A DNA stretch of 63,644 bases, filler included, from Folioceros fuciformis (lineage: Eukaryota), in assembly GCA_049999805.1 (NCBI GenBank). It is 3 parts of 2 records of this genome, joined end to end, with 100 filler letters (N's around TTAATTAATTAA, not from the genome) between each part and the next. Parts side by side here need not be neighbours in the genome. Positions count along the whole stretch, not along the records: positions 1 to 30,216 come from JBNGIO010006328.1; 2 more parts are not named here. One strand, given 5' to 3'. The notes beneath the pieces were generated by a model that was given only the letters and a program-made list of their open reading frames with translations, was not told the origin of the DNA and ran no database searches. Shown piece after piece: positions 7,202 through 53,590 of the stretch. The position numbers and the translations under genes were made by a program. The stretch's first letter is position 1. Every line of letters starts with the position of its first letter.

Positions 7202-10200
7202 TCACGACTCTGAGTCCAATTGCCTCGCATACCCAGCGTTCTCCATTTCGCAAATGAGCTGTTCTAGCCTTGCGTACACAGCTTCCCTGTCGGGATGTTT
7301 TTTGTCCCCGACCAAAAAAGTGTGCACTACGCCGTCAATGTCTGTCCACCAGCTCTGGCCCGGCTCCTTCCAGGCCTTCATTCCAGTTCTCCTGGCCTGC
7401 ATCTCCTCTGCCTGTTCCCACATGTTGACGCGTTTGTAAATGTTTGACATCAACACATACGCGGCAGCATCGTTCGCGTCCAGCTTGACTGCTTCCTGAA
7501 AAGCATGAAGTCCCACCTCCACATTGCTCCACATTCGACAAGCACCCAGTAGGCTGTGCCAGACTGCTGAGTCGGGCCGCATAGGCATTGTGCTGAACAA
7601 ATCCAGTGCCTCGTCCAGTAGGCCTGCACGACCCAGGAGATCCATCATGGTTGTGTAGTGCCCAACTGTGGGACTGCAGCCGTAGTGTTTGGTCATGGCC
7701 TCGAAGTACTGTCTCCCATCCTTCACGAGACCGGCATGACTGCATACTGTTAGCACACTGAGGAAGGTGACGCCCGTTGGCTGTATGCCATCATCTCTCA
7801 TTCTGTGGAACAAGTCAAAGACCGCTTCACTGTCTCCTTGACGGCTGTAGCCTGCAATCAAGGCATTCCAGGCCACTACATCTCGATTGGCCAGTGCCTC
7901 GAACACTTGCTGTGCATGAAACATGCTCCCAGACTTTGCATACATATTTATCAAACTGATCGCTACAAGCACCTCAGACTGTAGCCCCTGTTGTGTGATC
8001 TTTGCATGAAGCTGCTTTCCCAGATGCAAAGCCGCCACGTTTGCACACGCCTGGAGGAGGCACACAAATGTCACAGCATCAGGTGCAACTACGGCTTCGT
8101 TTTGCATAGCTCTGTACAGACGAAATGCTTCGTGTCCCATACCCTGCTGGGCATAACCTCCAATCATGGTGTTCCACATTACCACATCTTTGTGAGGAAG
8201 CTTGTCAAACACGCCCTGAGCATCTTCCAAGTTGCCGCACTTGACATATCCTGCCATCAGAGCGGTCCATGTCACCACATTCTTTTTTCCAAGTCCGTCA
8301 AACACTCTTTGGGCGTCTTCCAAGCTGCCACACTTCGCATACATGTTCACCAGGCTGCCACCTACTTTCACATCAGTCTGAAGGCCTCGTTCTCCAATCT
8401 GTGTATGCAGCTGTTTCCCAGTCTCCAAAGCAGGTGCGCCTACAGTTGCACATGCCTGCAGGAGAGTTACAAATGTTACAGAATCAGGCACAGCAGTGCC
8501 TTCTTCTCGCATTTCATTGTAAACGTGAAGGGCTTTCTCTCCCATGCCCTGCTGAGCGTATCCTGCTATCAAGGTTGTCCACGTCACCACATTCTTGTCA
8601 CTAATTCCGTCAAACACTCTTTGGGCATCTTCTAAGCTGCCACATTTTGCATACATATCCACCAGACAGCTACAAACGAATAGATCAGGCTCAACCCCGC
8701 TGGCGAAGACATCAGCATGCAACTGCTGCCCAGATGTCAAGTCTCTTGCCCTTGCACAAGCTTGCAGGGCCGATGCAAAGATATGGCCATCTGGCTTCAC
8801 ACTTGACCTGCGCATGTGATGATACAGTTTTATGGCCTGGTTATCTTGTCCATGTTTAACATGTGCAGAGATTAGCGAAAACCAAATGAAGACGTCTGGC
8901 TTGGTGACCATACTGAACACGTCCATTGCTTCTTGCAAACTGTCAAGAGTAGCATACATTTGCAACATACAGTTGGACAAGAAGGTGTCCGACTTATACT
9001 GCCCTCTCATAATGAGAGCATGGACACAACGACCCAGAGCCAGATCCTTCTGCTGCCCGCATCTTTTCAACACGGTATGAAATAGGGATCGTGGAATATG
9101 GTGGTGTGCTTGTACCAAAACTCCTAGAGCCTCAACAGCCTCGACAAGGTGCCCCTGCTGACATAGTCTCCTCACCGTATCAGCGGTTACACTGATTTCG
9201 AATCCTGTAGGCCTCCGACAGTCATTATCATGTCGCTCATTCAAGTTGTTAGTACAACCCATCTGCTTATCCTCGGCTACAAGCTGCACATCTTTCTTCA
9301 TTTTCTGAATCAACCATTCCAGCATTGCATATATACCGTCACTCTCAGGATGCTTTGCATCCCCAACCAAAAAGCTGTGCACCACTCCGTCCATGTCTGT
9401 CCACCGGCTCTGGCCTGGCTCCTTCCATGCCCCAATACTTGCTCTCCTCTCCTGCATCTCCTGTGCCTGCTCCCACATCTTGGCACCCCAATATATGTTC
9501 GACATCAACATATAAGCTGCAGAGTCGTTTTTGTCTAGATTCACTGCTTCTTTGAAAGCATGAGTTCCCACCTCTACATTGCTCCACATTTGACAAGCAC
9601 CCAGTAGAGTGTGCCAAACTGCAGCATCAGGAAGCAAAGGCATTGACCTTACCAAAGCTAGAGCCGCGTCCAGTTGGCCTGCACGACCCAAGAGATCCAC
9701 CATGCATGTGTAGTGCTCCACGGTGGGAGAGATGCCATAGTGTCTGCTCATAGCCTCAAAGTACTCTTGCCCCATCTTCACTAGACCTGCATGACTGCAT
9801 ACTGTTAGCAGACCAACGAACGTGACGCCAGTTGGCTGAGTGCCATCCTCTCTCATTCTGTTAAACAAGTCAAAGACGACTTCAGTGTCTACCTGATGGC
9901 TGTAGCCAGCAATAAGTGCATTCCAGGCAACGACACCTCTTTCCGGCAATGCTTCAAAAACCTGCCGGGCGCGGACCATGCTCCCACACTTTGCATACAT
10001 ATTTACCAAACTGACAGCAACAGGCACATCAGCCTGAAGTCCTTGTTCGACAATCTGAGCATGGAGCTGCTTTCCAACATGCAGGGCTACGACATCTGCA
10101 CATGCCTGCAGGAGGCAGACAAATGTCACAGCATTCGGCACAACGATACCTTCTCCCTGCATTCTCCTGTACAGATGAAGGGCTTCCTGCCCCATGCCCT

Positions 10201-11632
10201 GCTGGGAATATCCTGCAATCATGGCATTCCACGTTGCGACGTCCTTGTGAGGGAGCCTGTCAAACACTTTCTGCGCGTCTTCCAAGCTGCCACACTTCAC
10301 AAATCCTGCTATCAGAGCATTGCACGTTGCCACATCCTTGTGAGTGAGTTTGTCAAACACTCTTTGAGCGTCTTCCAAGCTGCCACATTTGGCATACATG
10401 TCTACCAAGCTGCAGCCTACTACTACGTCATCCTGAAGTCCCCGTTCTCCAATTTTCGTGTGAAGCTGTTTCCCCTGTTCCAAAGCCATGCTTCCTACAC
10501 TGGCACAGGCCTGCAGGAGGCACACAAAAGTAACACAATTGGGTGCAGCAAGGCCGTCTTGTTGCATGGCATCGTAGAGCTGAAGGGCTTGTTGACCTTT
10601 ACCCTGCTGGGCATATCCTGCTATCAGAGCTGTCCACGTAACCACATTTTTGCGATCGAGTCCATCAAACACTCTCTGAGCTTCTTCCAAGCTGCCGCAC
10701 TTTGCATACATGTCCACCAATCCACTACCAACAAACACATCAGGTTCACCGCCAGTCGCCAACACATCTGCGTGCACCTGCTGCCCAGATTCCAAGTCTG
10801 CCCCCTTCGCACAAGCCTTAAGCGCTGCTACGAACACATGACCGTCGGGCTTCACACTTGACCTGCGCAGCCGATGGTACAATTGTATGGCCTGATCATC
10901 CTGTCCGTGTTCAACATGCGCAGAGATTATGGAAGACCACATGAAGGCATCTGGTTTACCAACCCCGGTAAACACGTCCATTGCTTCGTGCAAGCTGGCA
11001 TGAGTAGCATACATCCGAAGGATGTGGTTGCACAAGAACGTGTCCGACTCGTAGCCCCATTTCACAGCCAGAGCGTGGACCCGACGACCAAGAACCAGAT
11101 GCTTCTGACTCACACATCCTTGCAGCACAGTATACAAGAGAGATTGAGAAACATGATAGTCTGTCTCCACCAAAACTCCCAGACCCTCAACAGCCTCGCT
11201 AAACTGCCCCTGTTGACATAGATGGCTCACCGTATCAGCCGTTACGTCATTCTCGCATCCTGCAGGCCTGCGTAGTCCAAGATCGTTCCGCATTGTCCAG
11301 TTGGAAGTAGTGGCACGACGACCCATCCGCATATCCACAGCTGCCAGCTGCACATCCACTAAACATTTCCTGTCCCAGAGGGCCTCCTGGGACTCACAGC
11401 TATGCCGGAAAACGGCCTCGTCACATCTTGAAGTCAGACCAGCCAACCAATTTTCGTTGTTCTGCACCAGGAAACCCGTTGCCACCCGAGGCCATGTGCC
11501 CCTGTCTGTGGACGTAGGGCAAGGGGCCGAGCAGCCATGATCAGCACAAGCACCTCGTGACAATATGGAGACCCCCACACCCAGTTCCCCTACGCCAAGC
11601 CCTGCGCAAGCTGAACCAGGTGTCCAAATCAT
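7202..11632 (-). CDS. PLS-class PPR protein (organellar RNA-editing factor type) with two tandem PLS-E-E+ modules and no complete DYW domain
   Basis: Repeated motifs LVDMYAKCGSLEDAQ, VTWTALIAGY and VTFVCLLQAC; two E domains (HYTCMVDLLGRAG, HYTTMMDLLGRAG) and two PG boxes (KEPGQSRW, KEPGQSWW); single intronless ORF. Confidence 0.93.
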   Translation of the reverse strand: MIWTPGSACAGLGVGELGVGVSILSRGACADHGCSAPCPTSTDRGTWPRVATGFLVQNNENWLAGLTSRCDEAVFRHSCESQEALWDRKCLVDVQLAAVDMRMGRRATTSNWTMRNDLGLRRPAGCENDVTADTVSHLCQQGQFSEAVEGLGVLVETDYHVSQSLLYTVLQGCVSQKHLVLGRRVHALAVKWGYESDTFLCNHILRMYATHASLHEAMDVFTGVGKPDAFMWSSIISAHVEHGQDDQAIQLYHRLRRSSVKPDGHVFVAALKACAKGADLESGQQVHADVLATGGEPDVFVGSGLVDMYAKCGSLEEAQRVFDGLDRKNVVTWTALIAGYAQQGKGQQALQLYDAMQQDGLAAPNCVTFVCLLQACASVGSMALEQGKQLHTKIGERGLQDDVVVGCSLVDMYAKCGSLEDAQRVFDKLTHKDVATCNALIAGFVKCGSLEDAQKVFDRLPHKDVATWNAMIAGYSQQGMGQEALHLYRRMQGEGIVVPNAVTFVCLLQACADVVALHVGKQLHAQIVEQGLQADVPVAVSLVNMYAKCGSMVRARQVFEALPERGVVAWNALIAGYSHQVDTEVVFDLFNRMREDGTQPTGVTFVGLLTVCSHAGLVKMGQEYFEAMSRHYGISPTVEHYTCMVDLLGRAGQLDAALALVRSMPLLPDAAVWHTLLGACQMWSNVEVGTHAFKEAVNLDKNDSAAYMLMSNIYWGAKMWEQAQEMQERRASIGAWKEPGQSRWTDMDGVVHSFLVGDAKHPESDGIYAMLEWLIQKMKKDVQLVAEDKQMGCTNNLNERHDNDCRRPTGFEISVTADTVRRLCQQGHLVEAVEALGVLVQAHHHIPRSLFHTVLKRCGQQKDLALGRCVHALIMRGQYKSDTFLSNCMLQMYATLDSLQEAMDVFSMVTKPDVFIWFSLISAHVKHGQDNQAIKLYHHMRRSSVKPDGHIFASALQACARARDLTSGQQLHADVFASGVEPDLFVCSCLVDMYAKCGSLEDAQRVFDGISDKNVVTWTTLIAGYAQQGMGEKALHVYNEMREEGTAVPDSVTFVTLLQACATVGAPALETGKQLHTQIGERGLQTDVKVGGSLVNMYAKCGSLEDAQRVFDGLGKKNVVTWTALMAGYVKCGNLEDAQGVFDKLPHKDVVMWNTMIGGYAQQGMGHEAFRLYRAMQNEAVVAPDAVTFVCLLQACANVAALHLGKQLHAKITQQGLQSEVLVAISLINMYAKSGSMFHAQQVFEALANRDVVAWNALIAGYSRQGDSEAVFDLFHRMRDDGIQPTGVTFLSVLTVCSHAGLVKDGRQYFEAMTKHYGCSPTVGHYTTMMDLLGRAGLLDEALDLFSTMPMRPDSAVWHSLLGACRMWSNVEVGLHAFQEAVKLDANDAAAYVLMSNIYKRVNMWEQAEEMQARRTGMKAWKEPGQSWWTDIDGVVHTFLVGDKKHPDREAVYARLEQLICEMENAGYARQLDSES

Positions 11633-11879
11633 AGTGCCCACATTCTTTCACAGCGATATTCAAGGTTTCCATCCAGTGCACATATCTTCACGATACACAA
11701 ACTGCTGCTTCTCATGAACTGCACATGCACATGATGCAAGTGGGTTAAATGTGAAACATTCTGCCCCCTGAGCTTGGACAAACATTCTGCCACCTAAGGA
11801 TCTCAATCTTGGTCAATGACAGGCACAGGGAGCCGTATTAAAAATAAATTGATTATTGTCCACACTGTCGTGCACAGCA

Positions 11880-11953
11880 GTCTGGGTGGTGTAGTTGGTC
11901 ATCACGCTAGTCTCACACACTAGAGGTCCCCGGTTCGAACCCGGGCTCAGACA
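11880..11953 (+). tRNA. tRNA-Val (anticodon CAC)
   Basis: Acceptor stem GTCTGGG/CTCAGAC plus discriminator A; D-arm TGGTGTAGTTGG; anticodon stem CTAGT-CTCACAC-ACTAG; T-loop GGTTCGAACC. Confidence 0.96.
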
Positions 11954-12462
11954 CCTATTTGAATCGCTCGTGCGGTCCCCAGCTCACATACTTTTATCAA
12001 AAAATATACTTCCGCCCAGGGAACTACTGGAAACGTGGTTCCCAGCCTTGCGTGGAGAGGAACAAAGCGGACTCCCGTTGGAAACGTGCACGGCTATTTT
12101 ATGTAATCTTTGCTTTTTGCCCACAGCCCAAGGGCTTGCTTTTGTCCTGGATGGCATTTTCTACTCCTGGCTTGTTTCTCACAGCCAAGGGTCTGTACAG
12201 GCTGATGCAGTGGATGCGCTCAATAATGGATCACGGAGTAAAAAATTCAATAGACTGCATCGAGGATGACGGACCGAGTACGCTCGAACGTCCACCCCCT
12301 GACTCTGTGAGGCAACAGGCTGCGTTGGGGAAAGCTGGAGGATGACGAGGCGGATAGCCTCGATAATCTGTGCCAGGGCCTGTTGGGGGCTGACCTTCAA
12401 GTCTATGTACATATACGGAAGCGAAAATTCACCACCAAGAGGAACGAATTAGGTGTTCGGCT

Positions 12463-21012: not shown

Positions 21013-21353
21013 TTATGTTCTTTAATTCCTCCTTCACCAAAAGGATACAGTCGAGGCTGGCCGAGAAATCATTTGATGAGGGTGCAGCCACTTGGTCTGC
21101 CAAAGGACACGACCTGCGACGAAGTGGCAGCGACTACAAAGCAGTCGGTGTTTTGCATTCTGGCTTCTGATTTCACTCTTCGTCGATGGACTTTCCAGTC
21201 CCGTACTTTATGGCTTCTAGTCCCTGTCTGGACATGATCAGGGAGATATGCGAAACCAAACAAAAATTGCATATCTACCCTCCAGCTCCACGATGCATCT
21301 AGGCATGCAATGTCAGGAGCCACAACAAACGGCCACCATAGACTGCCAAGAAC

Positions 21354-22229
21354 TTAATCGAAGCGCAAGCGCATATCTACGTCGTCGTCCGACTCTTCAG
21401 CTCACTCCGGCTTCAGATATTCCTTCACCTTGTCCGCCTGGGGAAACGAGTAGCCTGTCTCGATGGCTATAGCCAACACGTTCTTGTAGCTGTTGACGAA
21501 GAAGTGTGGTGCTGCCGCCAGCGTCGGGTAGTTAAGGCCCAGAGAAAGCGCTGACACTGTCGAGATTCCAGCAGCGAGCTTGTTCATCAAGTCATCTTCT
21601 GTCAGATCCAACACCGTAGGATCGAACACCGACCCGTTGTCGAAGATGCTCTTGACCACAAGCCCGTACGAGAAAGGACGGATTCCCAGCTTAGCCAACA
21701 ACGCTGCCTCGGAGGAGCCGACCTTGTCACCCTTCTTGATGAGCTCCACCGGGGCTATGATTTCCACAGTTCCCTTGTTAATCTTCGTGGGGATGTTGAG
21801 CACCTGGAAGAAGGAAGTCTGGGACGGATCCAGTCCCGTGTTCCCCGGAGGAACCACCACATCGATGGGTGCCACAAGACCCACACGGGCAGGTGCTCCT
21901 ACCTTGTACTTGGCAATCTCTTCCCTCACCTCCTTCAGGTCACCCTTGGTGAATATCAAACCAGCGTTACCTACCAGCAAAGGTATCAGATTCAAGATGG
22001 CTTCGTTACCCGTCTTCTCAGAGTGAATTCGAATGGTCCTCTTCATCATCGTGTTTTTCCCCATCAGGACCACGGACTCGGGCCTCAACCCCTGCCTGAT
22101 GCCCTGCAACTGGTTGGATCCGACATTGTCGGCGAGACAAATCAGGACCTGAGTGTACTGTTCCAACAGGTCGCACATCTTCCTGTCGTACGCCTGCTTC
22201 TTCTCCTGCTTGGTACCCTTGAACCCCAT
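21354..22229 (-). pseudogene. RPP0: 60S acidic ribosomal protein P0 (uL10) paralogue with deleted Ala-rich hinge and premature TGA (21402-21404) before a divergent acidic tail
   Basis: [11 protein letters not shown]...[13 protein letters not shown]...KVKEYLKPE* followed in frame by AEESDDDVDMRLRFD*; closely similar to the copy at 24785-25747. May instead be an expressed truncated variant. Confidence 0.75.
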
Positions 22230-22554
22230 GGTTACTCCCCGATCAGCTTCACCAACACCGCCAGCAGCTGTTACAGGCGACGTAGCACGACGACCGACGA
22301 CGAGACTACAGCAAGGAACCCGCACCAGGCCCAGCAAAATCCTGGAGTAGTAGAACAGCACAGCAAAATTCACGCGAGCTGCAGAACACACGGGAGATGA
22401 TCTCACCAAATTACTTGACATGCAGAGCACACGAAATCAATCAACTCCAAGAACCACACCTGACCTGTGCTCAAGGACCCCCAAAAGGGAAAACGCTCCA
22501 ATTCAGCAACGAAAGAGGGAAAGATGATACACACGCCTTGCGTTCCACAACAGT

Positions 22555-22615
22555 GGGGGGCCAAGCCGACGTCGATCGGGAAGGCGGGCAGGTGTGCTGC
22601 CGCTTTAACCCCAGA
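22555..22615 (-). promoter_or_regulatory. Conserved structured element in RPP0 5' leader (copy 1)
   Basis: GGGGTTAAAG-CGGCAG(CACAC)CTGCC-CGCCTT-CCCGA(TCGACG)TCGG-CTTGGCCCC; stems shared with 26074-26135 while loops differ. Confidence 0.65.
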
Positions 22616-22794
22616 TTACGAGACAACACAGACGCTCACGCTCGACGGAACGATTTATCGATCCTAGAAGAAGAAGGAGGAGAATGCATGCATTGATCGA
22701 CTCTTCCTCCACCACGAGGTGCAGTGGAGAACACGGGTTTCCAAATTCAGCAGCGGCTGAGTTTTAGCTGTTGTCCGACCGACAGTTGTAAATT

Positions 22795-22860
22795 GAAGAC
22801 TTTAGGGCTATGTGTACGATTTTTGCTTTTTTTGGGCTTAAAGCCCTAAACCCTCGCTGA
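22795..22860. promoter_or_regulatory. Divergent RPP0/EMG1 promoter region with site II (TGGGCT) and telo-box-like (AAACCCT) motifs
   Basis: TTTGGGCTTAAAGCCCTAAACCCTCG between head-to-head genes; these motifs are established in plant ribosomal-protein and ribosome-biogenesis promoters. Confidence 0.5.
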
Positions 22861-22975
22861 ACCTTATTGTCGTGGGGACTACTGCGACTGCATGAATTCA
22901 TCCCGAGGCTATATACATATGTCTGTCCTATATTGCTGCATCGATTGATCGTTGCGTCGTGCTGCGGCTTTTGAA

Positions 22976-24318
22976 ATGGGGGAATTGGAGGAAACTACAG
23001 AGAAGGTGGCTCCAGAGCCCAACGACGCGGGGACGTCAGTAGAAGATGAGGAAGGGGGTGTGATCTTTGTGCTGGAAAAGGCTTCCTTGGAAGTTGGGAA
23101 AGTTGGCAAGGTATGCGGTGGGGGGCTGCTGGTGCTGATGAGGTGACGAAGAAGACTCAGGCCAGGAATGGATGCTGATATTGCGTGACTCGTGTGTGCA
23201 GGGGTACCAGCTTTTGAATTGCGATGACCATGCCAATTTCTTGCGGTCGCACAAGCGGGACCCTGCCAATTATCGTCCAGACATTGTCCACCAGGTCTTG
23301 CGGCAGAGGCCACTGAGGGGGTTTTGGGCTTCGTGAGATTGCAGACATAGGGTTTACAGTTTATTGATATGGGGGCTTTTGGAATGGAATGGAGCAGGCT
23401 TTGCTGGCTATTCTGGACAGCCCGTTGAATAAAGCAGGGCGGTTGAAGGGGTTGTTTGTGAACACAGACAAGAATGTCCTGATCCAGGTGAACCCTCACA
23501 TTCGTATTCCGCGGACCTTCAAGCGCTTCTGTGGGCTTATGGGTAAGCTTTGTTTTAGGGTGGGGTAGTGTGTTTTTTACCTGCCGACAGTCGAACGTCT
23601 AGGGCAGTCGTCTGACTGATGATTGCTGTGCTGCAGTACAATTGCTAGAAAAGCTAACCATTCGAGCAACAAATGGTCCCGACAAGCTTTTGAGAGTCGT
23701 CAAACAGCCAGTTACACGGCATCTGCCTGTTGGCGCTCGACGTGTTGGTAGGTCCCTAAAAATGCGGACAATGGTGCTAGTCTCGAAGCTTGGGTTTCCT
23801 CATGAAATTTTCTGGGAATTAGCGGGGTTCTAGTTCATTGGAATTGGTTCGGCAAGCTCCTATGCGCGGAGCTCCGCTTGCCTTGGCTCAACTGATGGTC
23901 TCTGATAGTACATGATGGTAACAGGGATGTCGTTTAGTGCACCCAAAGTTGTTGAATTGCGGAGCTACGTCAAAGCAGCGGGCATTAAATCCACTTTAGT
24001 TTTTGTGGTGAGGATATAGGCAAAGCTGCTTTTTTGGTTTCTTTGTGCCTTGCCACTGTCGAACCTTCTAATACTTCAGTACAGGTCGGAGCGATGGCCC
24101 ATGGCAAGATTGAAGCTGATTACACAGATGATCTAGTGTCAGGTATGAAATTTCCTGGACCTTGCATGCATTCCTTCAGTCTTTCACCAGCCTGGGTGTT
24201 GTGTAAGGAGCGCAACCTGAGTGAACACTGTCTTGCAGTTTCGCAGTACCCATTAAGCGCTGCTTGCTGCCTTGGTCGCATCTGCAACGCCCTAGAGCAA
24301 GAATACAAAATCGTCTAG
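22976..24318 (+). CDS. EMG1: 18S rRNA pseudouridine N1-methyltransferase NEP1/EMG1 (multi-exon)
   Basis: Exons encode VIFVLEKASLEVGKVGK, YQLLNCDDH...RPDIVHQ, ILDSPLNKAGRL, NPHIRIPRTFKRFCGLM, VGAMAHG and YPLSAACCLGRICNALE; GT-AG introns. Confidence 0.92.
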
Positions 24319-24784
24319 TCCTGCTGCAATAGCGTGTCTTTGGAGTGCTCTCAGGCCATAGGACGTTGAAACTTCGGAAAGCACCCACCAAGGCTAGTTT
24401 TCTCTAAATGTTTCGGGAAGGTACTGAATGTTATTTCGCAGGCTGAACTGTGTACTCTAAGTGCATCGGGGTGGTGATGGTCACCGTGTATTATGGTACG
24501 ACTGTGCATCAAACTGGTGATGGTCACCGTGTATCATGGTAGGATTGTGATTTGGTGTACTGGTGTACTGAAGGAACTGCAAATTTGTCCAGATACATCG
24601 TTCCCGAATACTTGGTGAATCACACAACACCTAAGATCATACGATGAAAATCAACCAAGCTTACACATACCGGCTATGCAAGAAAGTCCGCTTTCGCAAA
24701 ATTCTCATGACGCCAAAACCCTTGGGCCCACAAGGAAGCATCGAATGACAATTACAAAGGTGAACTGCACAAACTAAAGTTAAC

Positions 24785-25747
24785 CTAATCGAATAGACTG
24801 AAACCCATATCCTCGTCCGACACTTCCTCAGGTTCCGCCTTTTCTTCTTCCTTCGCCGCCGCAGCAGCGGGTGCAGCAGCTGCCGATGTCTCCGCCGGAG
24901 CCGCGGCCACTGCAAATTTGCTTGGGTCCTTCAAGTACTCCTTCACCTTCTCCGCCTGAGGAAATGAGTACCCTGTCTCGATTGCGATGGCCAACACGTT
25001 CTTGTAGCTGTTCACGAAGAAGTGTGGTGCTGCTGCCAGCGTCGGATAGTTCAGACCCAGAGAAAGTGCTGCCACTGTCGAGATTCCAGCAGTGAGCTTG
25101 TTCATCAAGTCATCTTCTGTCAGATCCAACACCGCAGGATCGAACACCGACCCATTGTCGAAGATGCTCTGAACCACAAGCCCGTATGAGAAAGGACGGA
25201 TTCCCAGCTTGGCCAACAGCGCTGCCTCAGAAGACCCGACTTTGTCACCCTTCTTGATCAGCTCCACGGGGGCGATGATTTCCACAGTCCCCTTGTTAAT
25301 CTTCGTGGGAATGTTGAGCACCTGGAAGAAGGAAGTCTGGGAGGGATCCAGCCCAGTGTTTCCCGGAGGAACCACCACATCGATGGGTGCTACAAGACCC
25401 ACACGGGCAGGTGCTCCCACCTTGTACTTAGCAACCTCCTCCCTCACCTCCTTCAAATCACCCTTAGTGAAGATCAGACCAACATTACCCACCAGCAACG
25501 GAATCAAATTCAAAATAGTTAGGTTCTCGGTCTTCTCAGAGTGAAGACGAATGGTCCTCTTCATCATCGTGTTTTTCCCCATCAACACCACAGACTCAGG
25601 CCTCAACCCCTTCCTGATGGCCTGCAGCTGATTGGAGCCGACATTGTCAGCAGCACAAATCAGGACCTGATTATATTCCTCCAACAGGTCGCACATCTTC
25701 CTGTCGTAAGCCCCTTTCTTCTCCTTCTTGGTGCCCTTGAAACCCAT
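24785..25747 (-). CDS. RPP0: 60S acidic ribosomal protein P0 (uL10), intact
   Basis: Full-length with Ala-rich hinge and terminal [14 protein letters not shown]; probable 5'UTR intron with acceptor near 25753. Confidence 0.97.
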
Positions 25748-26073
25748 TGCTCCTGCAAATGACAAGGTACTAAAGTTAGCTTCAGTAGAATAGTGCGAAA
25801 CAGAGATATCATTCTATCTGTACATAGTGACTGATAACGGATTAGGAGGACCCGAAAACGCAGCACTACCTTCAAGAGTTTACCTGTTAGCCAGTTGTGC
25901 CTACAGCGTGGTCTAGCTAAAAAGCAAGCATAAGATACTCGGAAAGCTGAGCAACAAATCAAAACACTACCACACCTGGTTAGAAGGATCCTGGAAGGCC
26001 CTGGCAAACAGACGCTCCGCTTCACCGACAAAGGATACAAGATCAATTCCTCGAACTACGTACTGCAAGCAAC

Positions 26074-26135
26074 TGGGGGCCAAGCCGAGCGTAGTCGGAC
26101 AAGGCGGGCAGCCTCACTGCCACTTTAACCCCAGA
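26074..26135 (-). promoter_or_regulatory. Conserved structured element in RPP0 5' leader (copy 2)
   Basis: CTGGGGTTAAAG-TGGCAG(TGAGG)CTGCC-CGCCTT-GTCCGA(CTACGC)TCGG-CTTGGCCCCCAG, just upstream of a probable GTACGT splice donor. Confidence 0.65.
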
Positions 26136-26352
26136 GTAAGAGATGCGCTGACGAAGGGAGAGCGCAAAGCCGCAGCGAGAAAGAGACCTAGTTGAAGGCT
26201 CCCCCAACAATTTCAACAGCCAATATTTAGGGTTTTGAGGTTCGTGTCCTCGAGCCCTAATCCTTACGATTTCGACAGCCGATATGTAGGATTTTGGCGA
26301 ACTCTCTCAAAACACGAAACTTCACCCAAGGTACCAGCGTGGACTTGGAGAC

Positions 26353-28295
26353 ATGGCTAAGGGAAAGCGTAAACGTGAGGATGATGAAGACGACGATGGA
26401 GATGATAACACAGGGAAGAAGGCCGTGCTTCCCTCGCAAATTAAGAATAAGGATCGGAGAGCTGCTGCTTATGCAAAGCTAAAGAACGCGAAGAAAAGGG
26501 ATAAGCAGAAGGCTCAGCAGGCTCGCCTGGCTGCTGAAAGGGAGGCGGAAGAGCTTGGCGAAGCGGTAAGCTGCTGGAGGGTTTATGGGGGTTCAGCAGT
26601 TGTTGTAGCTGCAAGGCGTTCTGATGGGTGATGGGTTTTGCAGCCTCCGGTAAGGCAAATTCCACGGACCATAGAGAACACTAGGGAGCCAGATGAGACA
26701 ATCGCGCTGCCAGATGATGAGGAGGTGGGTTTAGGGTTGTGGGGACTCAATGTGATGAATTTTTCTTTGATCTGACTAGCTACCGAATAGAAGGCTGACA
26801 GAGGGATTTTTCAGCTCCATGCGGATGACGCAACCGATGAATTCAGTGCTCATTTCTCACGAGCTCGGGACTCGAAATTGCTCATCACGACTTCCAGGGA
26901 GTGCTCAAACGTGAGACTATGATATGCCGTTGCCCAGTGGTTTCGTATGGTGCTGTTGGTTTTTGTTCGCGGTGCTGGACAGGCGGCTTAGCTCACACGG
27001 TGTTGGCTTCTAATGTAGCCCACCCGGAAGTTCATCTTGGAACTGCTAAGGGTCATTCCACACGCTTATTACTACAAGCGCGGGAGCTATGAATTGAAGC
27101 AGGTGAACAGTTTTATCGGACTTCACCCCTCCCCTTTCATTATATCATACTTCTCACTGGCTCACCGTGGTTCGGTGACATGTCGCAGATTGTAAAGTAT
27201 GCAAAGAATCGAGATTTTTCTGGCATCATGGTGATAAACGAAAATCGCAAAGAGCCCAGTATGTCACTAGACTATGAGGGAAAACAGTCTCTGGCTATTA
27301 AATTCTTTGGGGGAGCTCATCGTTGTGTTTTTTCCTTGCAACAGATGGTATGCTTCTTATAAATTTGCCAGATGGCCCTACTGCCCAATTTGTTCTCTCT
27401 AACCTTGTGCTCAGCAAGAAAATAAAGGTAGGCTGCTGCGTTCTGGGTTGACGTCCCTGCTACGTGTGGTGTATAGAGAGAAGTTGGTAACTTTCGGTTG
27501 AACTGTAAAATTCAGGGCCATGGGCGGGCAACTAGCCATATACCTGAACTTATTCTGAACAATTTTACAACCCGCCTAGGGCATCGAATTGGCAGGTGTG
27601 GGTTTCATTTGTTTATGGCTCTCTGGGAATTCGCATGACAATTGTACTGCCGTGTCCACAAGTAGATGACAATCTTCTTTGGCCGTGCAGGCTTTTTGCT
27701 TCAGTATTCCCCCAGAACCCCAATTTCAAGGGTCGACGGGTCGTAACTTTTCACAATCAACGTGATTTCATTTTCTTCCGTCATCACAGGTATACGCAAG
27801 GCTCCCTGATGCTGTCTGGTTCGACATATCAAAATGTGCGGTCACAAACTTACTAGCGGTGTTTCAGATATATTTTTGAAACTAAAGAGGTTTTGGACCC
27901 TCTCACCAAGAAGAGCAAAGTAGAAGGGGCTGTGAAGAAGAGAAAGTCTAAAGAGAAGGTCATTTCTCGACTGCAGGTGATCCTCGTAGTTTTTATGTCT
28001 TCTGAGTGTGGCACAGAAAATCCCAAACAACTAGAGACCTAGGAGCTCGTAAGTCGTGCCTGAAGAAATGGATTGGTATTGCAGGAGTTGGGTCCTCGTT
28101 TCACTCTGAAGCTTCAGAGTCTACAGCATGGGACCTTCGACTCTAAGTTCGGTGAATATGAATGGGTTCATAAGGTAATCATGCTAGCGCGACTTGGGGG
28201 CACCTGGCTTTGCTTCGTTTTCAGCTCTATCAACTGATGGATCTCTCCTGTGGCAGCCCGACATGGACACGAGTCGACGGAGATTCTTCCTGTGA
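26353..28295 (+). CDS. RPF1: Ribosome production factor 1 (Brix domain), multi-exon
   Basis: [77 protein letters not shown] and terminal DTSRRRFFL*. Confidence 0.93.
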
Positions 28296-31100: not shown

Positions 31101-34100
31101 ATGGCGGCCAGCAGCTGCGTGCATGTTGTGGTTCCGACGGGAGTGATTGAGGAGGAGCTCAAGGAGTTCATGGAGACGAAGGTCGGGCCGCTCTCGGGAT
31201 GGTCATATAACATCAAGAAGAGGTGTTTGTCGAGCAGGGATGTCGGCTACGCGTTGCTGCAGTTTACGGACCAGAGGCTCGCGGGGAAGGCTTGCGAGCT
31301 CTCGGCGGACAACAAGCTGCATCTCAGGGGCGGGAATTTGACGGTGACGCGCACCAGGTACGACATCAAGCAGGGCCCGTCTTACGGAATGGAGCGGTGG
31401 GGGAGCGGGACCTTCCATGGCGGTTGTCTTGTGTCCGATACCGATTTCAAGCTTATGTGGGATCCGGAGGTGGCCGCGGTCACGGAGTTCGATTTCCGTG
31501 CTAAATTGTTGCGCCTTGTGTTTAAACTTAAGTGCGAGGAGGACTGCGAGTGCAAGCTGGAATTTCCGTTTAACCAGCTGCATCTCACTGCACTTGCGCT
31601 GCGGAAGGAGCAGTACAAGGCCTTGTTCAAGCTGCAACACCTGCCTACTTCTACCGAACACTTCAAGGCGTTTCTGTTGAAGGTGATTTCGTTTCCTGCT
31701 CCTTCATTTCCTGCCTGCTGCTTCCCCTCTGTTGTGCTGTCCCCGCTGTTTTCCTGCTAGTTGCTTCGCCTCCTTTCCCTGCATTTTTCATTTTCCCAGT
31801 TCCCCTGCTATTTTCCCGCAGCTTCCTGTTTTGTTCACGATGGCTGATTCCCTCTGCGTCTCCTGCTTCACCCTCCCTCTGCTTCTCCTCCTGCGGTGTC
31901 TGTGGCATTTACCTGCCACTGAAACTGGCTGGCTGTCAAGCTGCAGCCAGATTGGGCTCCGCAAGTTTTCAAGCGATCTTGTAGGGAGTTGGTGCCGCCG
32001 CCAAAAGAGTCCCTGCTCAATTCTATCCATGAGTTTTGCGACGCCAAGACCTTCCACAATGTTGGAGGGCCTGAGGAGGTCTGGACCAGAATGGGAGATC
32101 TGCTTCCCGACTACCCCATTGCACAGTGTCGTCAGTTTCTGGTGCTTGTCTCCAATGTTTCTGACGAGGAGAGCAAGAAAGTTTTGGAGATGCTTGGAGA
32201 TTATGCGGTGGTGGCCCCTGCAGGAAGGCAAGCGTTGGAGACCCAAGTGCATCTCTACTATGCTTTTAAACAGCCATTTGGGCCTGTGCTCGGCTCTCCG
32301 CACATGAATGCACTTCCGTTTGAGCTGTATTTCAAGCTCCATAGCTTGGTACATTTTGGGACATTGGCGGCACCGAGCTTGACACCACAGTTTCTGGCCA
32401 TGATCCGGCCCTCTTATGATTCTCCTGTAGAGTGGACTATGCAGGCTTTAGAGGAGATGGGCACTGAGGAGGGCCTTGTGTCTAATCCGATGACGTATGT
32501 TCGTGATGCACTCGATAAAATGAGTCAGGAGGCAACCTCATTGAAAGCTCCTGTGGAGCACCGATCTCGCACCCACTATGGCCACCATGTCTGGGTTCGG
32601 CGTATGTTTGTCACTCCATCCAGGATTCTGTTGTACGGACCTGAGCTAGAGCCCTCTAATCGGGTCACTAGGCAGTTCGTGAAGCACATCGACTGCTTCC
32701 TTCGTGTCGTCTTTGTGGAGGAGGATTTGAGCCCGCTGCAGTATCAAGCGTTGGCTAAGCCCATAAAGAGCTTTGATTCGAATCTCCTCCCTGAGTCTAC
32801 GGCAGTACACCAGAGGATGAAGAAAATAATGGACGGGTTCTGGATTGCTGACAAGAGGTTCGAGACTCTTGCCTTCTCAACTAGTCAGCTTCGGGAGAAG
32901 TCACTTTGGATGTTTGCAGCTCCCAATTCTGAAGTAACTTGTGAAACTATCAGGAAATTCATGGGGGATTTTGGTATGATTCGGAATGTGGCCAAGTATG
33001 CTGCGCGCATGGGGCAGTGCTTCTCTGCAAGCACTCCTACTTACGATGTCCCCACTAGTCAGGTAGAGCGTATTTCAGATATTTTCACCACGCGTAACGG
33101 TATCACGTACAACTTCTCGGATGGCATTGGTAAGATATCACTTGTCTTTGCCAGGGAAGTTTCCAGAAAGTGTGGATTCATCAAGTGCGATGGCAGAGTT
33201 CCTTCCGCCTATCACATCCGTTATGGTGGCTATAAGGGCGTTGTTGCACAAGATCCTACTGTAGAGTCCAACATGACACTCTTTCTCCGGGACAGTATGT
33301 GTAAGTTTGAGTCTACTCATACTGGGTTTGAAGTGATTAAATGCAGTACGGCAAAGCCATGCCACCTCAATCGTCAGATAATCACATTACTGTCTACTCT
33401 CGGCATTCCAGATGAGACCTTTGAAGACATGCTGAAGTATGTGCTAGGGGAGCTGGATGCCATGCTGCATGATCCAGCTAGGGCTCTGCAGTTCTACTCC
33501 GGTGATATGCTAGCTTGCTTGCTCAACGTTGGGTTCGATCCTTCACTTGACCCACACTTAATGGGCGTGCTGCGAACCATGCGTGCATCACAACTTTTGG
33601 ATCTGCGGAAGAAGGCACGTATCCCAGTGAGGAAGGGTAGGATGATGCTAGGTTGTCTTGATGAGGCACGAACTCTGCAGGGTGGCGAAGTCTTCATTCA
33701 AATTTCTCCTCTGGCTACAGATTGTGGTGTGATGATAGACGGCACTCTGTCTCCAGTAATTGTAGATGGAAAAGTTTCGACTTACATTGTCACAGGGGAT
33801 GTAATTGTCACCAGGAGTCCTTGCCTGCACCCTGGGGATATCCGACGGTTGAATGCTGTAGATAACCAACGTTTGCGGCATATGGTGGATTGTGTGGTGT
33901 TTCCTCAAGTCGGCACCAGGTACTTTCTCCTCAGGAAGGAGGACCGCATGAACGCTGGCCCTCTATTTTTCTTCCCTTCATGCTTCTTGATGTTGTCTTA
34001 AATTCTAATAAACTGCCATCTATGATCAGGCCTCACCCCAGCGAATGTTCAGGTGGAGATTTGGATGGAGATGAGTATCATGTAATCTGGGACCCTCGCC

Positions 34101-41330: not shown

Positions 41331-42949
41331 AAAATCTGTCATGTCGAACACTATTGGAATGCATGAGCTCCGTGCGGTTGACTGAAACTTGTGAAGCTTA
41401 GTTCGGCACTCTCTTATGTGGGTTTCGTTGGTGCTACACGTTTTCGAGGTTGCAAATGAACATGCACGTTTCTTTTCTCCAAGAAGGTTAACGAGTGAAT
41501 TGAAATGTTTTCTGTAGACTAGGATCCGGAACAAGCCGGGGTTGAAATGAATCAGGAGAGGACGGTATCTTCACGTCTCCGATAAGGTTAACCGTTGATT
41601 CGAAACAAGCTGGATTGGGATTCGAACGGAATCAAAACAAGAGCATACCTAAGTATCCCAGTGGCAAAGTATGGGCTAGGTCCAACTGCATAGAATCAAG
41701 AGAAGAACAGACCTAAATATCCCACTGACACAGGACATGGATATGATCCCGGCGTCATTGGGATAGACTACATATGTACACCAGCATAGAATCAAAAACA
41801 GAACAGACCTAAACGGACAACCTTTACGCCGAAACTCTCAATCCGAAGACGCGGCAAGGTCTTGTGATGTGTTGTTGTCGGTCACCACCTGCTCACAGAT
41901 GATAAGATAGGCTCCGATCTGAGAATTGAAGTCGGAAGGAGTGGAGGACGGCCGCAGAGCAACACCGAATCGGAGGACTTGAGTGAAACACAGAATTAAG
42001 ACCGAGGTTGCAACACCGCCTCCACCCGAGCCAGCGAACCTTTTGAAGGAACCCTGGTCGATACAGTTGCCGCGCCTGCATCTTTCTCTCCGGGACCGCC
42101 TTCAGGTAAGGCGTTTGGAATCCTTCCATTCGCTTTGGGACCAAACACGTAGAGCTTAGTAGGAGGTGCAATCGGGCCAACGCCTGCGAACGGAGTGATG
42201 TGCGCCTCCCCCGTGGGAGGATCCCACACCGTGAAGCCCGACATGGTATAAGCTTGACAACTGGCACAAAGCAGAACAAAGTTAAGCAAAAGAAAACCAA
42301 CTTACTCGCTCCCCGGGCGCTTGATCCCCGCTCGCGGTCGCTTTTGTGCCAACTTCACAAAAGAGTCTGAGTCTCAGATTTCACCGTCACTCCCAGCTTT
42401 TATGTGCGTTCGGGTTCTGTACACTTCGCAACCCTCATACCGGGACAAATTTAAATTATTTTAAAAACTTTTTAATAAAATTAATCCTACTTTTATGAAT
42501 TCTTACATATTATGTAAATTTGCAGTTATGTTTTACGGTTTAGTTATCTTTTTTCTGTAAGAAGTTTTGTCATTGAATTGCAACATATACATAGAAATCT
42601 TTCATTAATTAATTAGGGAACTTATGATTAAAATATATTTATAAAACCCAGTATTTTTTATGATTGAAAAAGAGATGGAAAGTCCCATTACTCCAAAGGT
42701 TGGAGAACAACACTAAAACTACCTATTACTCCCAAAATGTCATATGGTAGAATAACAAAAGGCCTACTTACCACCGATGCCGACAAAGCCGCTTGACCTG
42801 CACTTGTTTTTGCTATAAAATGATTTATCCTTCTTCAAAGACAATGATTTACTCTTCCATAATAAAATTAACCACTTTATTTAAATGAATGTAGATCATT
42901 CACGTAGGGTTTAGGTTTTAGGGTTTATTGAATGTCAATAACATCTAGA

Positions 42950-44300
42950 AGATGAAAGTAGTTAGTTATGCCTTTATTGTAATTCAAACATTGTTTTATT
43001 GCTTAAAAGATCATTATCTTAACTTATTGTACAAGATAAAAAGGTACCTACATGACTATTTAAACTCGTTACAATGGAAGCAAGAAAGCCAAACTAATCC
43101 TCAGACATTACAAGAGGCCACTATAGCAGCATCAAATGTGATACTAAATCTAAATGTATGCTTAACATGCACCAATGTCAAAAGAAAGGTATTCAAGATC
43201 CCAAGGTAGATCTAGAGGTAGAGGAGGAGCAATCACCATTGTGAATAAAGGAACAAATGAAATTGCTTGCAAAGAAAGAGCTAGAGGAGATAACAAAGGT
43301 CATGGAAGACAACAAGTAATGCCTAGCTTAAACTGGTGTGTGCTACAATTGTGGAGAGTAGGGACATTTGCTAGGAATTGTCCACATGGGTTTAGGGTTT
43401 AGGGAAATTCTAACTTGAATTTATTAGTTGCCAATCCACTACTATGAGAGTCAGAATTCAAGAAGTCCCTAAAGAGCCCAAATGACATAAGAGGCCACAT
43501 GTTGTGATAACATGTGTTGAGTCATGTAGTATCAAGGATGACACTGATTCAAGGGAATATGAAGCCTTGATTCGAGGGAATATGAAGCCTTAATGTACAT
43601 ATGTAGGAAGATGAATGGTGTAGAAATAAAGGTGTTATTGGATTTTGTAGCCACCCACAATTTCATAACTCCTTTTAAGGCAAGAAAGCTTGGCCTTAAA
43701 TGGGTTAAAACTTCCACACCATATGGAATGAAGCAAGCTAAAGTGACTGTACAATTTTTGGGTGAATTGCATAGAGTAAAGCTATTAGTTGAGGTGTGGG
43801 AAGGAAGTGTGAGTTCCATAGTTGTGGACATGGATGACCATGATATCATCTAGGGCTAGAGTGGATGAGATCCAATGAAGTGCTAAGTGTAGTCACTTAC
43901 CATTGCGATATCCACGAAGCACAAGGTGGTCTTTGCTGGTGTTGCAAGAAGCACAACATGGTTTGTACTAGTGTTAGCAAGAAGCACAAGGTGGTTTGTG
44001 CTAGTATGAGCAAGAGGCTTGGGAGAACATCAATATAGTTGGTTTTAAAAAGAGAGCTCAAGAAGCGATCTCATAAAAAACGAAGGAGGTATTCCAAGGA
44101 TCAGAGGACGACGGTCTTGAACAAGATTCTATATGGAGAAGGAAGTACAAGATGTCTTAGATGAATTTAAGGATTTGATAACAAATGTGTTTCCACCTTT
44201 CTCGTCTTAGAAAGTAGTAAACCATGCAATTGAGTTGAGATCAAGAAGTATGTGTGTGTTGTTGAGAGCACGCATAAATTATAACAAGATAAGTTGTAAG
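42950..44300 (+). mobile_element. Degenerate Ty3/gypsy gag-protease relic
   Basis: Zinc knuckle CYNCGE...FARNCP (about 43341-43385); aspartic protease-like IKVLLDFVATHNFI; pre-RT VQDVLDEFKD...VNHAIEL; many stops; AT-rich. Confidence 0.75.
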
Positions 44301-45157
44301 AACTAAAGCTACAACAAGCAAGGTGATGGTTTTTGAATACGCTAAAGAAACCATTGGAGGTTCTATATTTGTAGGAATATCGATGGTATATGCATGAAAA
44401 GAATATAGTCCAGAGCTAGAATAATATAACCATTCTTAAAATAAGATTAAAATCCTCCAGAGGCGAATGAGCGGAGCATATCCTATCCCAATCTATCCAT
44501 GAGTCTGGTCGTCCAGATCCAGTTGACGACGGTCGGGAGCCTGTACGTCTTTATCGTGACGTAGGCTGGGAATGACTTGGTTGCCAAATGGCAGGCAGTG
44601 AAGCTGCTGGCGGCCGGCAGTCCGCGGATGCCGGAAGGCGCCGCGCGTCCAGATTCTTGCTTTCACTGCTCCAGATTCTTGTTTCCACTGCTGGCTTTGG
44701 CTCTGGCTCCAGCTCTTCCCGCTCCCGGCTCTGGGTGTACCAGCCTCAGGTGCACGGGCCAATCGGGCATTACACCCACAAATATATTCTTGTATGTGCG
44801 CACGGCTTGCCTGCTAAAAGGCATTGGCTGGGCAGCCGTAATGTACGATGGCGCGTGACGGTCATATGGTTGCAGCAGTCTGTGCCATCTGGAGGCTGGG
44901 TTCCATTTGCCATTTGGGCTCGTCAGCTCGCATCCTCTTGTCAGAACACCGTCCTGGCAGTGGCATCCTCGTCCTCCTCCTCTGCAGACCGCAGAGTTAG
45001 GGGGCAGTGTTAGTAGTTAGCGTGTCTGGCAAATTGTGAGCGCCCTCAACATGATGGGCGCGCAGGATCGAGAGGATACCGCTGCCGAGGCCAGGGATAT
45101 TACTCCCAGCTCCCCCCGTTCGCTTCAGGCAAGAAGTGATGCGGATGAGAAGGCGGG

Positions 45158-53550: not shown

Positions 53551-53590
53551 GGGTTTAGGGTTTAGGGTTTAGGGACCCTAAACCCTAAAC
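53551..53590. repeat. Short inverted interstitial telomeric repeats (TTTAGGG)n-A-(CCCTAAA)n
   Basis: GGGTTTAGGGTTTAGGGTTTAGGG A CCCTAAACCCTAAAC. Confidence 0.85.

Follow-up and report, generated by a model that had tools for sequence, protein, structure and literature searches.

A conserved module of nested inverted repeats upstream of two RPP0 (uL10) paralogues of Folioceros fuciformis, a candidate leader element

The 63,644-nt stretch of Folioceros fuciformis DNA analysed here (assembly GCA_049999805.1; called the window below, all positions being counted along it) carries two genes for the ribosomal stalk protein P0 (RPP0, uL10), gene A and gene B, both on the minus strand. Each is preceded by one copy of a short module, element 1 at 22555-22615 and element 2 at 26074-26135, both on the minus strand and 326-388 nt upstream of the RPP0 start codons. 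As judged from the alignment of the two copies, which lie about 3.5 kb apart at these tandem paralogues, the element is a real, sharply bounded and gene-specific conserved module of hairpin or palindrome architecture. We tentatively favour the reading that it is an RPP0-specific cis element which most likely acts as leader RNA, although we give this somewhat less than an even chance, and among possible new leader elements of ribosomal protein genes we regard the module as a good candidate.

In the order of the alignment the element is composed of TCTGGGGTTAAAG, a C/T site, GGCAG, a 5-nt patch, CTGCCCGCCTT, one or two variable nucleotides, among them an indel of 1 nt, then CCGA, a patch of 6 nt and finally TCGGCTTGGCCCCC. 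Forty-seven positions are identical between the copies, and the two short patches agree at 0 of 11 positions. In 20-column windows of the paralogue alignment, identity is 0.60-0.85 over the island versus 0.10-0.50 in most flanking windows, and the introns and promoters of the two genes are scarcely alignable. The alignment confirmed the two minus-strand islands of about 60 nt which the initial annotation had described as conserved within dissimilar surroundings, and likewise its statement that the loops differ while the stems are identical. Each variable patch is bounded exactly by an inverted repeat without mismatch, 5 bp long at the first patch and 4 bp at the second, for which the analytic chance estimate is 9e-6. 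Since only 1 of 200,000 composition-preserving shuffles reproduced this arrangement, the association of patches and repeats is real, the patches being either the loops of RNA hairpins or the spacers of palindromic DNA sites.

Within the window the module is restricted to these two sites. A 32-nt pattern of its 5' half matches only there at up to 3 mismatches, and two or more matches were found in 0 of 100 shuffles. A covariance model of the element, run over the whole window without filters, returned the two copies at 95.0 and 90.8 bits and no third one, the next-best match having 12.7 bits (E 0.11). The GGGGTTAAAG block occurs twice, both times at RPP0 genes; elsewhere in the window CTGCCCGCC is found twice and TCGGCTTGG and TTGGCCCC once each, and within the window no sub-block recurs at other gene starts. 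A metagenome scan with the 5'-half pattern gave ten loci (L001-L010), none of which carries the downstream blocks, so that they are chance matches; plants are rare in that collection, and the scan is therefore silent on conservation. A second, weaker conserved block of the first exon, downstream of the element, contains GGAGCGT, and its partner in gene B falls within the contig-covered part of exon 1.

The identity of the genes as two RPP0/uL10 paralogues, as proposed in the initial annotation, is well supported by Pfam domains and by land-plant P0 matches of 78-87% identity. Ribosomal_L10 and RL10P_insert are present in both genes and the acidic Ribosomal_60s domain in gene B only. The full-length P0 encoded by gene B has 87% identity to its best match in the protein collection and 78-83% to the P0 of conifer, fern, lycophyte, liverwort and moss. 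The two proteins share 255 of 273 residues, and with 39 of 120 four-fold sites differing between the coding regions the paralogues are old. The body of gene A is conserved and transcribed despite the missing tail: its product has lost the C-terminal tail and retained the ribosomal RNA (rRNA)-binding N-domain under purifying selection. Gene A is either a tail-less P0 paralogue or reliant on stop-codon read-through. At its 3' end (21340-21430, minus strand) the Ala-rich hinge is missing and the TGA follows after KEYLKPE; beyond this TGA, in the same frame, lies a degenerate acidic tail, AEESDDDVDMRLRFD, followed by a stop. A third expressed RPP0 paralogue of the same organism is represented by a transcript-derived contig (record 2 of the run X1 described below) which matches 21658-21953 with 54 differences in 296 nt and whose 171-nt 5' part does not match the window.

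With only two copies known, at tandem paralogues 3.5 kb apart, the similarity might have no function at all and be the remnant of a recent gene conversion or a product of chance. This we consider the least credible of the explanations discussed here. Conversion would have homogenised the loops together with the rest, yet no loop position agrees against 47 identical positions elsewhere, and because the loops differ completely the module is not a conversion remnant. Chance is excluded by the shuffles for both the pattern search and the inverted repeats.

Transcription was followed in a run of contigs (X1) which is not on record as RNA and was judged spliced from its joints: nine precise joints with GT..AG or CT..AC ends are spread across the stretch, and it is on these grounds that X1 is taken to derive from spliced RNA. 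One of its contigs, record 3 with a length of 529 nt, matches 22465-22651 and 22037-22378 at 0 differences. Element 1 is found 36 nt inside the 5' end of this contig, with the 5' splice site following 90 nt downstream, and because the contig carries a minus-sense GT..AG intron, element 1 is part of the spliced RPP0-A mRNA, in its non-coding first exon. The initial annotation had placed the element in the 5' leader of both paralogues and had named a location outside the transcript as one of the observations that would speak against its proposal. For gene A the leader position was borne out by the spliced contig; for gene B the contig stops at about 26046, with no loose end, and transcript cover of the element is absent. 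The missing X1 cover at 26074-26135 counts neither way; contigs cannot show a start. In this single run of contigs there is one joint for each intron of the untranslated region at the 5' end (5'UTR) and no alternative joint. Two runs from other organisms (X2 and X3) match on coding sequence only, at an 80% likeness limit that would miss copies with different loops.

The consensus fold of the two elements is a Y-shaped junction in which a closing stem of 4-6 bp (P1) is followed by an invariant unpaired UUAAAG, a first hairpin (P2), and a stem (P3a) bearing the second hairpin (P3b). The consensus of the pair has -21.4 kcal/mol and a structure conservation index of 0.82. In two sets of 1000 column shuffles that keep the conservation pattern it was equalled or beaten by 3 and 5 (z -3.2 to -3.45), and in full column shuffles by 0 of 1000. 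Each element folded alone also gives a three-helix junction, with minimum free energies (MFE) of -24.0 and -28.3 kcal/mol, and when the whole first exons are co-folded the local junction is the common structure.

Of the three-way junction drawn in the initial annotation, the three-helix topology and both hairpins are present in the consensus, while the exact junction as drawn is not the best computed fold. Its 8-bp outer stem, GGGGUUAA/UUGGCCCC, is possible but not favoured: it has -20.0 kcal/mol in both copies, 4 to 8 kcal/mol above the MFE, and excludes P3a. Its pairs reach a probability of 0.23-0.33 in copy A, against 0.00 in copy B. Two U-G pairs are included in it, which are possible on the sense RNA only. 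The C/U change, previously read as one that keeps pairing with G, could not be upheld as such, the site being unpaired in the consensus with a C-G pair probability of 0.30 in A and no such pair seen in B.

Table 1. Features of the two RPP0 genes and their upstream regions (window positions; P1, P2, P3a and P3b are the helices of the consensus fold; TSS, transcription start site)
Feature	Position	Strand	Remarks
Element 1 (gene A)	22555..22615	-	P1 22609-22612/22556-22559 (GGGG/CCCC); UUAAAG 22603-22608; C/U site 22602
Element 1, P2	22597-22601/22587-22591	-	GGCAG/CUGCC, loop 22592-22596; consensus fold
Element 1, P3a	22583-22585/22560-22562	-	GCC/GGC
Element 1, P3b	22576-22579/22566-22569	-	CCGA/UCGG, loop 22570-22575
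Element 2 (gene B)	26074..26135	-	P1 26129-26132/26075-26078; UUAAAG 26123-26128; U 26122
Element 2, P1 extension	C26134-G26073, U26133-A26074	-	
Element 2, P2	26117-26121/26107-26111	-	Loop 26112-26116
Element 2, P3a	26103-26105/26079-26081	-	
Element 2, P3b	26095-26098/26085-26088	-	Loop 26089-26094
Second, weaker conserved exon 1 block	22494..22513	-	Partner 26013-26032 (gene B); 15/20 identical
Gene A non-coding exon 1 (contig extent)	22465..22651	-	X1 record 3; holds element 1
Gene A 5'UTR intron	22379..22464	-	86 nt, GT..AG; joint 22378->22465, CT..AC on plus strand, 1 contig, side 187
Gene A coding region	21402..22229	-	275 aa, ATG 22229; P0 body without acidic C-terminal domain; in-frame TGA 21402-21404
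Gene B non-coding exon 1 (contig-covered part)	25976..26046	-	Joint 25751->25975, cut +1 = minus-strand GT..AG, side 72
Gene B 5'UTR intron	25753..25975	-	223 nt; donor aligns with gene A intron donor
Gene B coding region	24785..25747	-	320 aa, ATG 25747; full-length P0 with Ribosomal_60s tail
Pyrimidine patch, 19 nt	22666..22684	-	Just upstream of gene A contig 5' end (22651); candidate TSS zone
Pyrimidine patches upstream of element 2	26177..26186 and 26153-26162	-	Candidate upstream TSS zone, gene B
Telo box AAACCCTAA	26227..26235	-	92 nt upstream of element 2; marker of promoter/TSS zone

Several observations weigh against an action of the module as leader RNA. Transcription was seen for element 1 only, and the sample consists of two paralogues of one genome with no orthologue. 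As single sequences the elements have a stability which is ordinary for their composition (z -0.94 and -1.45; 39 and 14 of 200 shuffles are as stable). The antisense consensus is equal or better (-24.85 kcal/mol, z -4.5, 0 of 1000 shuffles), and since the antisense strand folds as well, the signal is one of palindromes and not specific to the sense RNA. The two sequences do not differ at any of the 16 consensus pairs and there is no covariation; this invariance in itself says nothing either way on pairing. In MFE and partition folds of the complete leader the local helices have a probability of at most 0.08 in both genes. Finally, most RNA-binding proteins that read loops leave the opposite footprint to invariant stems with free loops, a pattern also left by dimeric DNA-binding proteins.

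Several of these observations fit a module acting at the DNA level, a cluster of sites for transcription factors, located at the core promoter of RPP0 or shortly downstream of it, whose inclusion in the gene A transcript would be incidental. The palindromes GGCAG-N5-CTGCC and CCGA-N6-TCGG with their free spacers would then be read by dimeric factors, together with the flanking blocks. Half-sites and spacer lengths (5 and 6) that are invariant around spacers free to vary are the classic footprint of such factors, and the missing strand asymmetry and covariation, the loss of the local RNA helices in full-leader folds and the location of the element in a short divergent-promoter region adjoining a telo box all agree with this explanation. 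The blocks of the element also contain motifs which we take to be a GT-1 core (GGTTAA), a TCP core (GGNCCC) and a core like that of E2F sites (CCCGCC). On the other side, element 1 is part of a transcript, at least 36 nt from its end. With 47 invariant positions in 61 bp the block far exceeds the degenerate promoter motifs in its vicinity, half-sites of 4 bp are short for a factor, the further nested arms (GGGG/CCCC and GCC/GGC) are left unexplained, and the blocks do not recur at other genes of the window. On balance we hold both the DNA-level module and its reading by dimeric factors to be rather unlikely, though this is the main competitor of the leader RNA.

The location of the module relative to the start of transcription bears on the same question. 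Telo boxes of translation-related genes in Arabidopsis and rice are located mostly from -50 to +50 of the TSS (excerpt of PMC3022908). Applied to the telo box upstream of element 2, this position rule predicts a TSS upstream of the element, so that by analogy with these distant species gene B would start upstream of element 2. Neither the telo box AAACCCTA nor the site II motif TGGGCY is present within 22555-22615 or 26074-26135; both strings agree with the same excerpt of PMC3022908. C-skew and pyrimidine profiles showed no more than a weak peak, at 40-60 nt upstream of each element. Missing upstream ATGs were tried as an indication that the leader of gene B is longer and rejected, as their absence is not significant (P(zero ATG) 0.79 for 26047-26200 and 0.095 for 26047-26351).

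Upstream of gene B (26204-26300, minus strand) there are two copies of a unit of about 31 nt resembling CAAAAYCCTAMATATYGGCTGTYGAAATYGT, one of which contains the telo box, and a related stretch is located upstream of gene A (22804-22826, minus strand). These units are probably shared promoter motifs of the RPP0 paralogues; they are about 0.5-0.65 identical between the paralogues and far less rigid than the element. More telo boxes (AAACCCTAA) are found at 42918-43400 and 53555-53588, three of them clustered in the latter interval, and may mark further translation-related promoters.

Rfam was searched, as the initial annotation had proposed, and no family matched either element. Rfam 15 (4227 models) at the gathering threshold gave 0 matches in the whole window. 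At E values up to 10, where the scans include the models of the L10 leader, P5SM, ribozymes and large-subunit (LSU) rRNA, there were four weak matches in 22300-22800, all of them outside the element, and 0 in 25950-26300. A separate small RNA or a processing signal embedded in the leader (ribozyme, tRNA-like or snoRNA-like) would suit the compact three-helix shape and the invariant core, yet is very unlikely given the missing Rfam match, the absence of box motifs on inspection and the continuity of element 1 with the contig of a spliced mRNA. A tRNA-like gene was rejected, since ARAGORN finds only a tRNA-Val far from the elements, at 11880-11955. A coding or upstream open reading frame (ORF) was likewise rejected, the 1-nt indel shifting the frame between the copies and an ATG being absent, as was an inversion of the loops by template switching, the loops not being mutual reverse complements on inspection.

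A more specific idea is that the junction mimics the uL10 site of 25S rRNA (the H42-H44 three-way junction of the GTPase-associated centre), so that surplus P0 would repress its own mRNA; this is one particular form of the RNA reading. Precedents for leader autoregulation or rRNA mimicry exist in the bacterial L10 leader and in plant P5SM. In the window the element is confined to the two uL10 genes; it has a three-helix topology, its size being about that of the rRNA site, and gene A has kept it together with the rRNA-binding N-domain of its product. Against the mimic stand the long unpaired junction between the closing stem and the first hairpin and the freedom of the loops to vary, since within the rRNA site conservation is highest in the loops of H43 and H44. 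Neither element showed a likeness to LSU rRNA or a match to the L10 leader in the Rfam scans with E values up to 10, which a purely three-dimensional mimic might escape. RPP0 and uL10 are also absent from the main text of a yeast screen for ribosomal-protein autoregulation (PMC7732827) and of a review of ribosomal-protein gene regulation (PMC8047918). With no detectable rRNA likeness, and binding of P0 being pure inference, we regard this form of autoregulation as improbable.

Returning to the leader RNA which we favour, the following course of events may be proposed. The two islands would be copies of one RPP0-specific cis-regulatory module, maintained by strong purifying selection since the old duplication, transcribed within the non-coding first exon and folding in vivo into the small Y-shaped junction. 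As the stems and the junction nucleotides are invariant and the loops are free, a trans-acting factor would recognise the folded core and not the loops, and this factor would set the translation or the stability of the leader-bearing RPP0 mRNA. The most attractive candidate ligand is free P0 (uL10), alone or with P1/P2, which would provide a feedback on the supply of stalk protein; it is the obvious candidate because the element is found only at the two uL10 genes and is kept at the tail-less gene A. Ligand and direction of the effect are what we infer here, as is the action at the RNA level.

Genes A and B are separated by a plus-strand EMG1/NEP1 gene (22839-24236), which is the divergent partner of gene A across a short gap, while the divergent partner of gene B, also across a short gap, is a Lys/Arg/Asp-rich ORF without a Pfam match (26353-26631, plus strand). 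One X1 contig of 2030 nt contains the NEP1 exons and continues into the 3' part of gene B, so that the 3' ends of these two genes, which are convergent, must abut or overlap. Elsewhere the window contains an uninterrupted PPR ORF of 1481 aa with E and E+ motifs (7202-11647, minus strand), the tRNA-Val(CAC) already mentioned (plus strand), an RNA-dependent RNA polymerase ORF (31923-34001, plus strand) and a legume-lectin receptor kinase ORF (45149-47578, plus strand).

Gene-specific feedback on ribosomal protein synthesis is textbook knowledge in bacteria, and to our knowledge it is established for only a handful of eukaryotic ribosomal protein genes. Full-text literature searches returned no described eukaryotic RPP0/uL10 leader element and no report of feedback control of the stalk protein uL10/P0 in eukaryotes, and when three of the element's blocks were looked for as literal strings in papers, the matches were unrelated primers only. 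RPP0, uL10 and a three-way junction are absent from the main text of a 2025 survey of new plant structured RNAs (PMC12218528). A module of 61 nt which is letter-perfect in old paralogues except for the loops is a small and readily mutated target for direct testing. If it turned out to be a DNA element instead, RPP0 would have, next to the general telo-box system, a promoter module of its own that is unusual in its length and rigidity.

Four known systems may be compared with the module. With the promoter motifs of plant ribosomal protein genes (telo box and site II; excerpt of PMC3022908) it shares the location near the TSS of such a gene, a telo box being present upstream of element 2. These motifs, however, are 6-9 nt long and common to most ribosomal protein genes, whereas the RPP0 module has 61 nt, contains neither motif and is found nowhere else in the window.

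The autoregulatory islands of eukaryotic ribosomal protein genes are also gene-specific conserved non-coding islands near the first intron. The kink-turn of yeast RPL30 is an autoregulatory element of this kind. Further examples are uL1/RPL10a (excerpt of PMC4937301) and RPS13 (excerpt of PMC2095825). In these systems the action is on splicing and the element is at or in the intron. The RPP0 element differs in that its end is separated by 90-98 nt from the 5' splice site downstream of it and in that only a constitutive joint is seen.

P5SM, the 5S rRNA mimic in the TFIIIA pre-mRNA of plants, is likewise a ribosome-linked conserved structured RNA of a plant in a non-coding part of a gene. P5SM resembles 5S rRNA and belongs to a cassette exon subject to alternative splicing, whereas the RPP0 element is in the first exon of gene A, with no alternative joint in the one contig run and no rRNA likeness detected.

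The L10 leader of bacteria and archaea, through which rplJ is autoregulated, is the fourth of these systems. The RPP0 element has no match to the Rfam model of this leader (L10_leader) and belongs to a eukaryotic capped mRNA with a 5'UTR intron, its loops being free and its stems invariant. That it should be an independently evolved eukaryotic counterpart, a land-plant RPP0 leader RNA bound by free P0 or P0-P1-P2 which tunes stalk-protein synthesis and is kept in the tail-less paralogue as a possible regulator or decoy, is a long shot. What the two have in common is a structured element ahead of a uL10 gene and, should the RNA reading hold, a leader which is specific to its gene and could sense surplus stalk protein.

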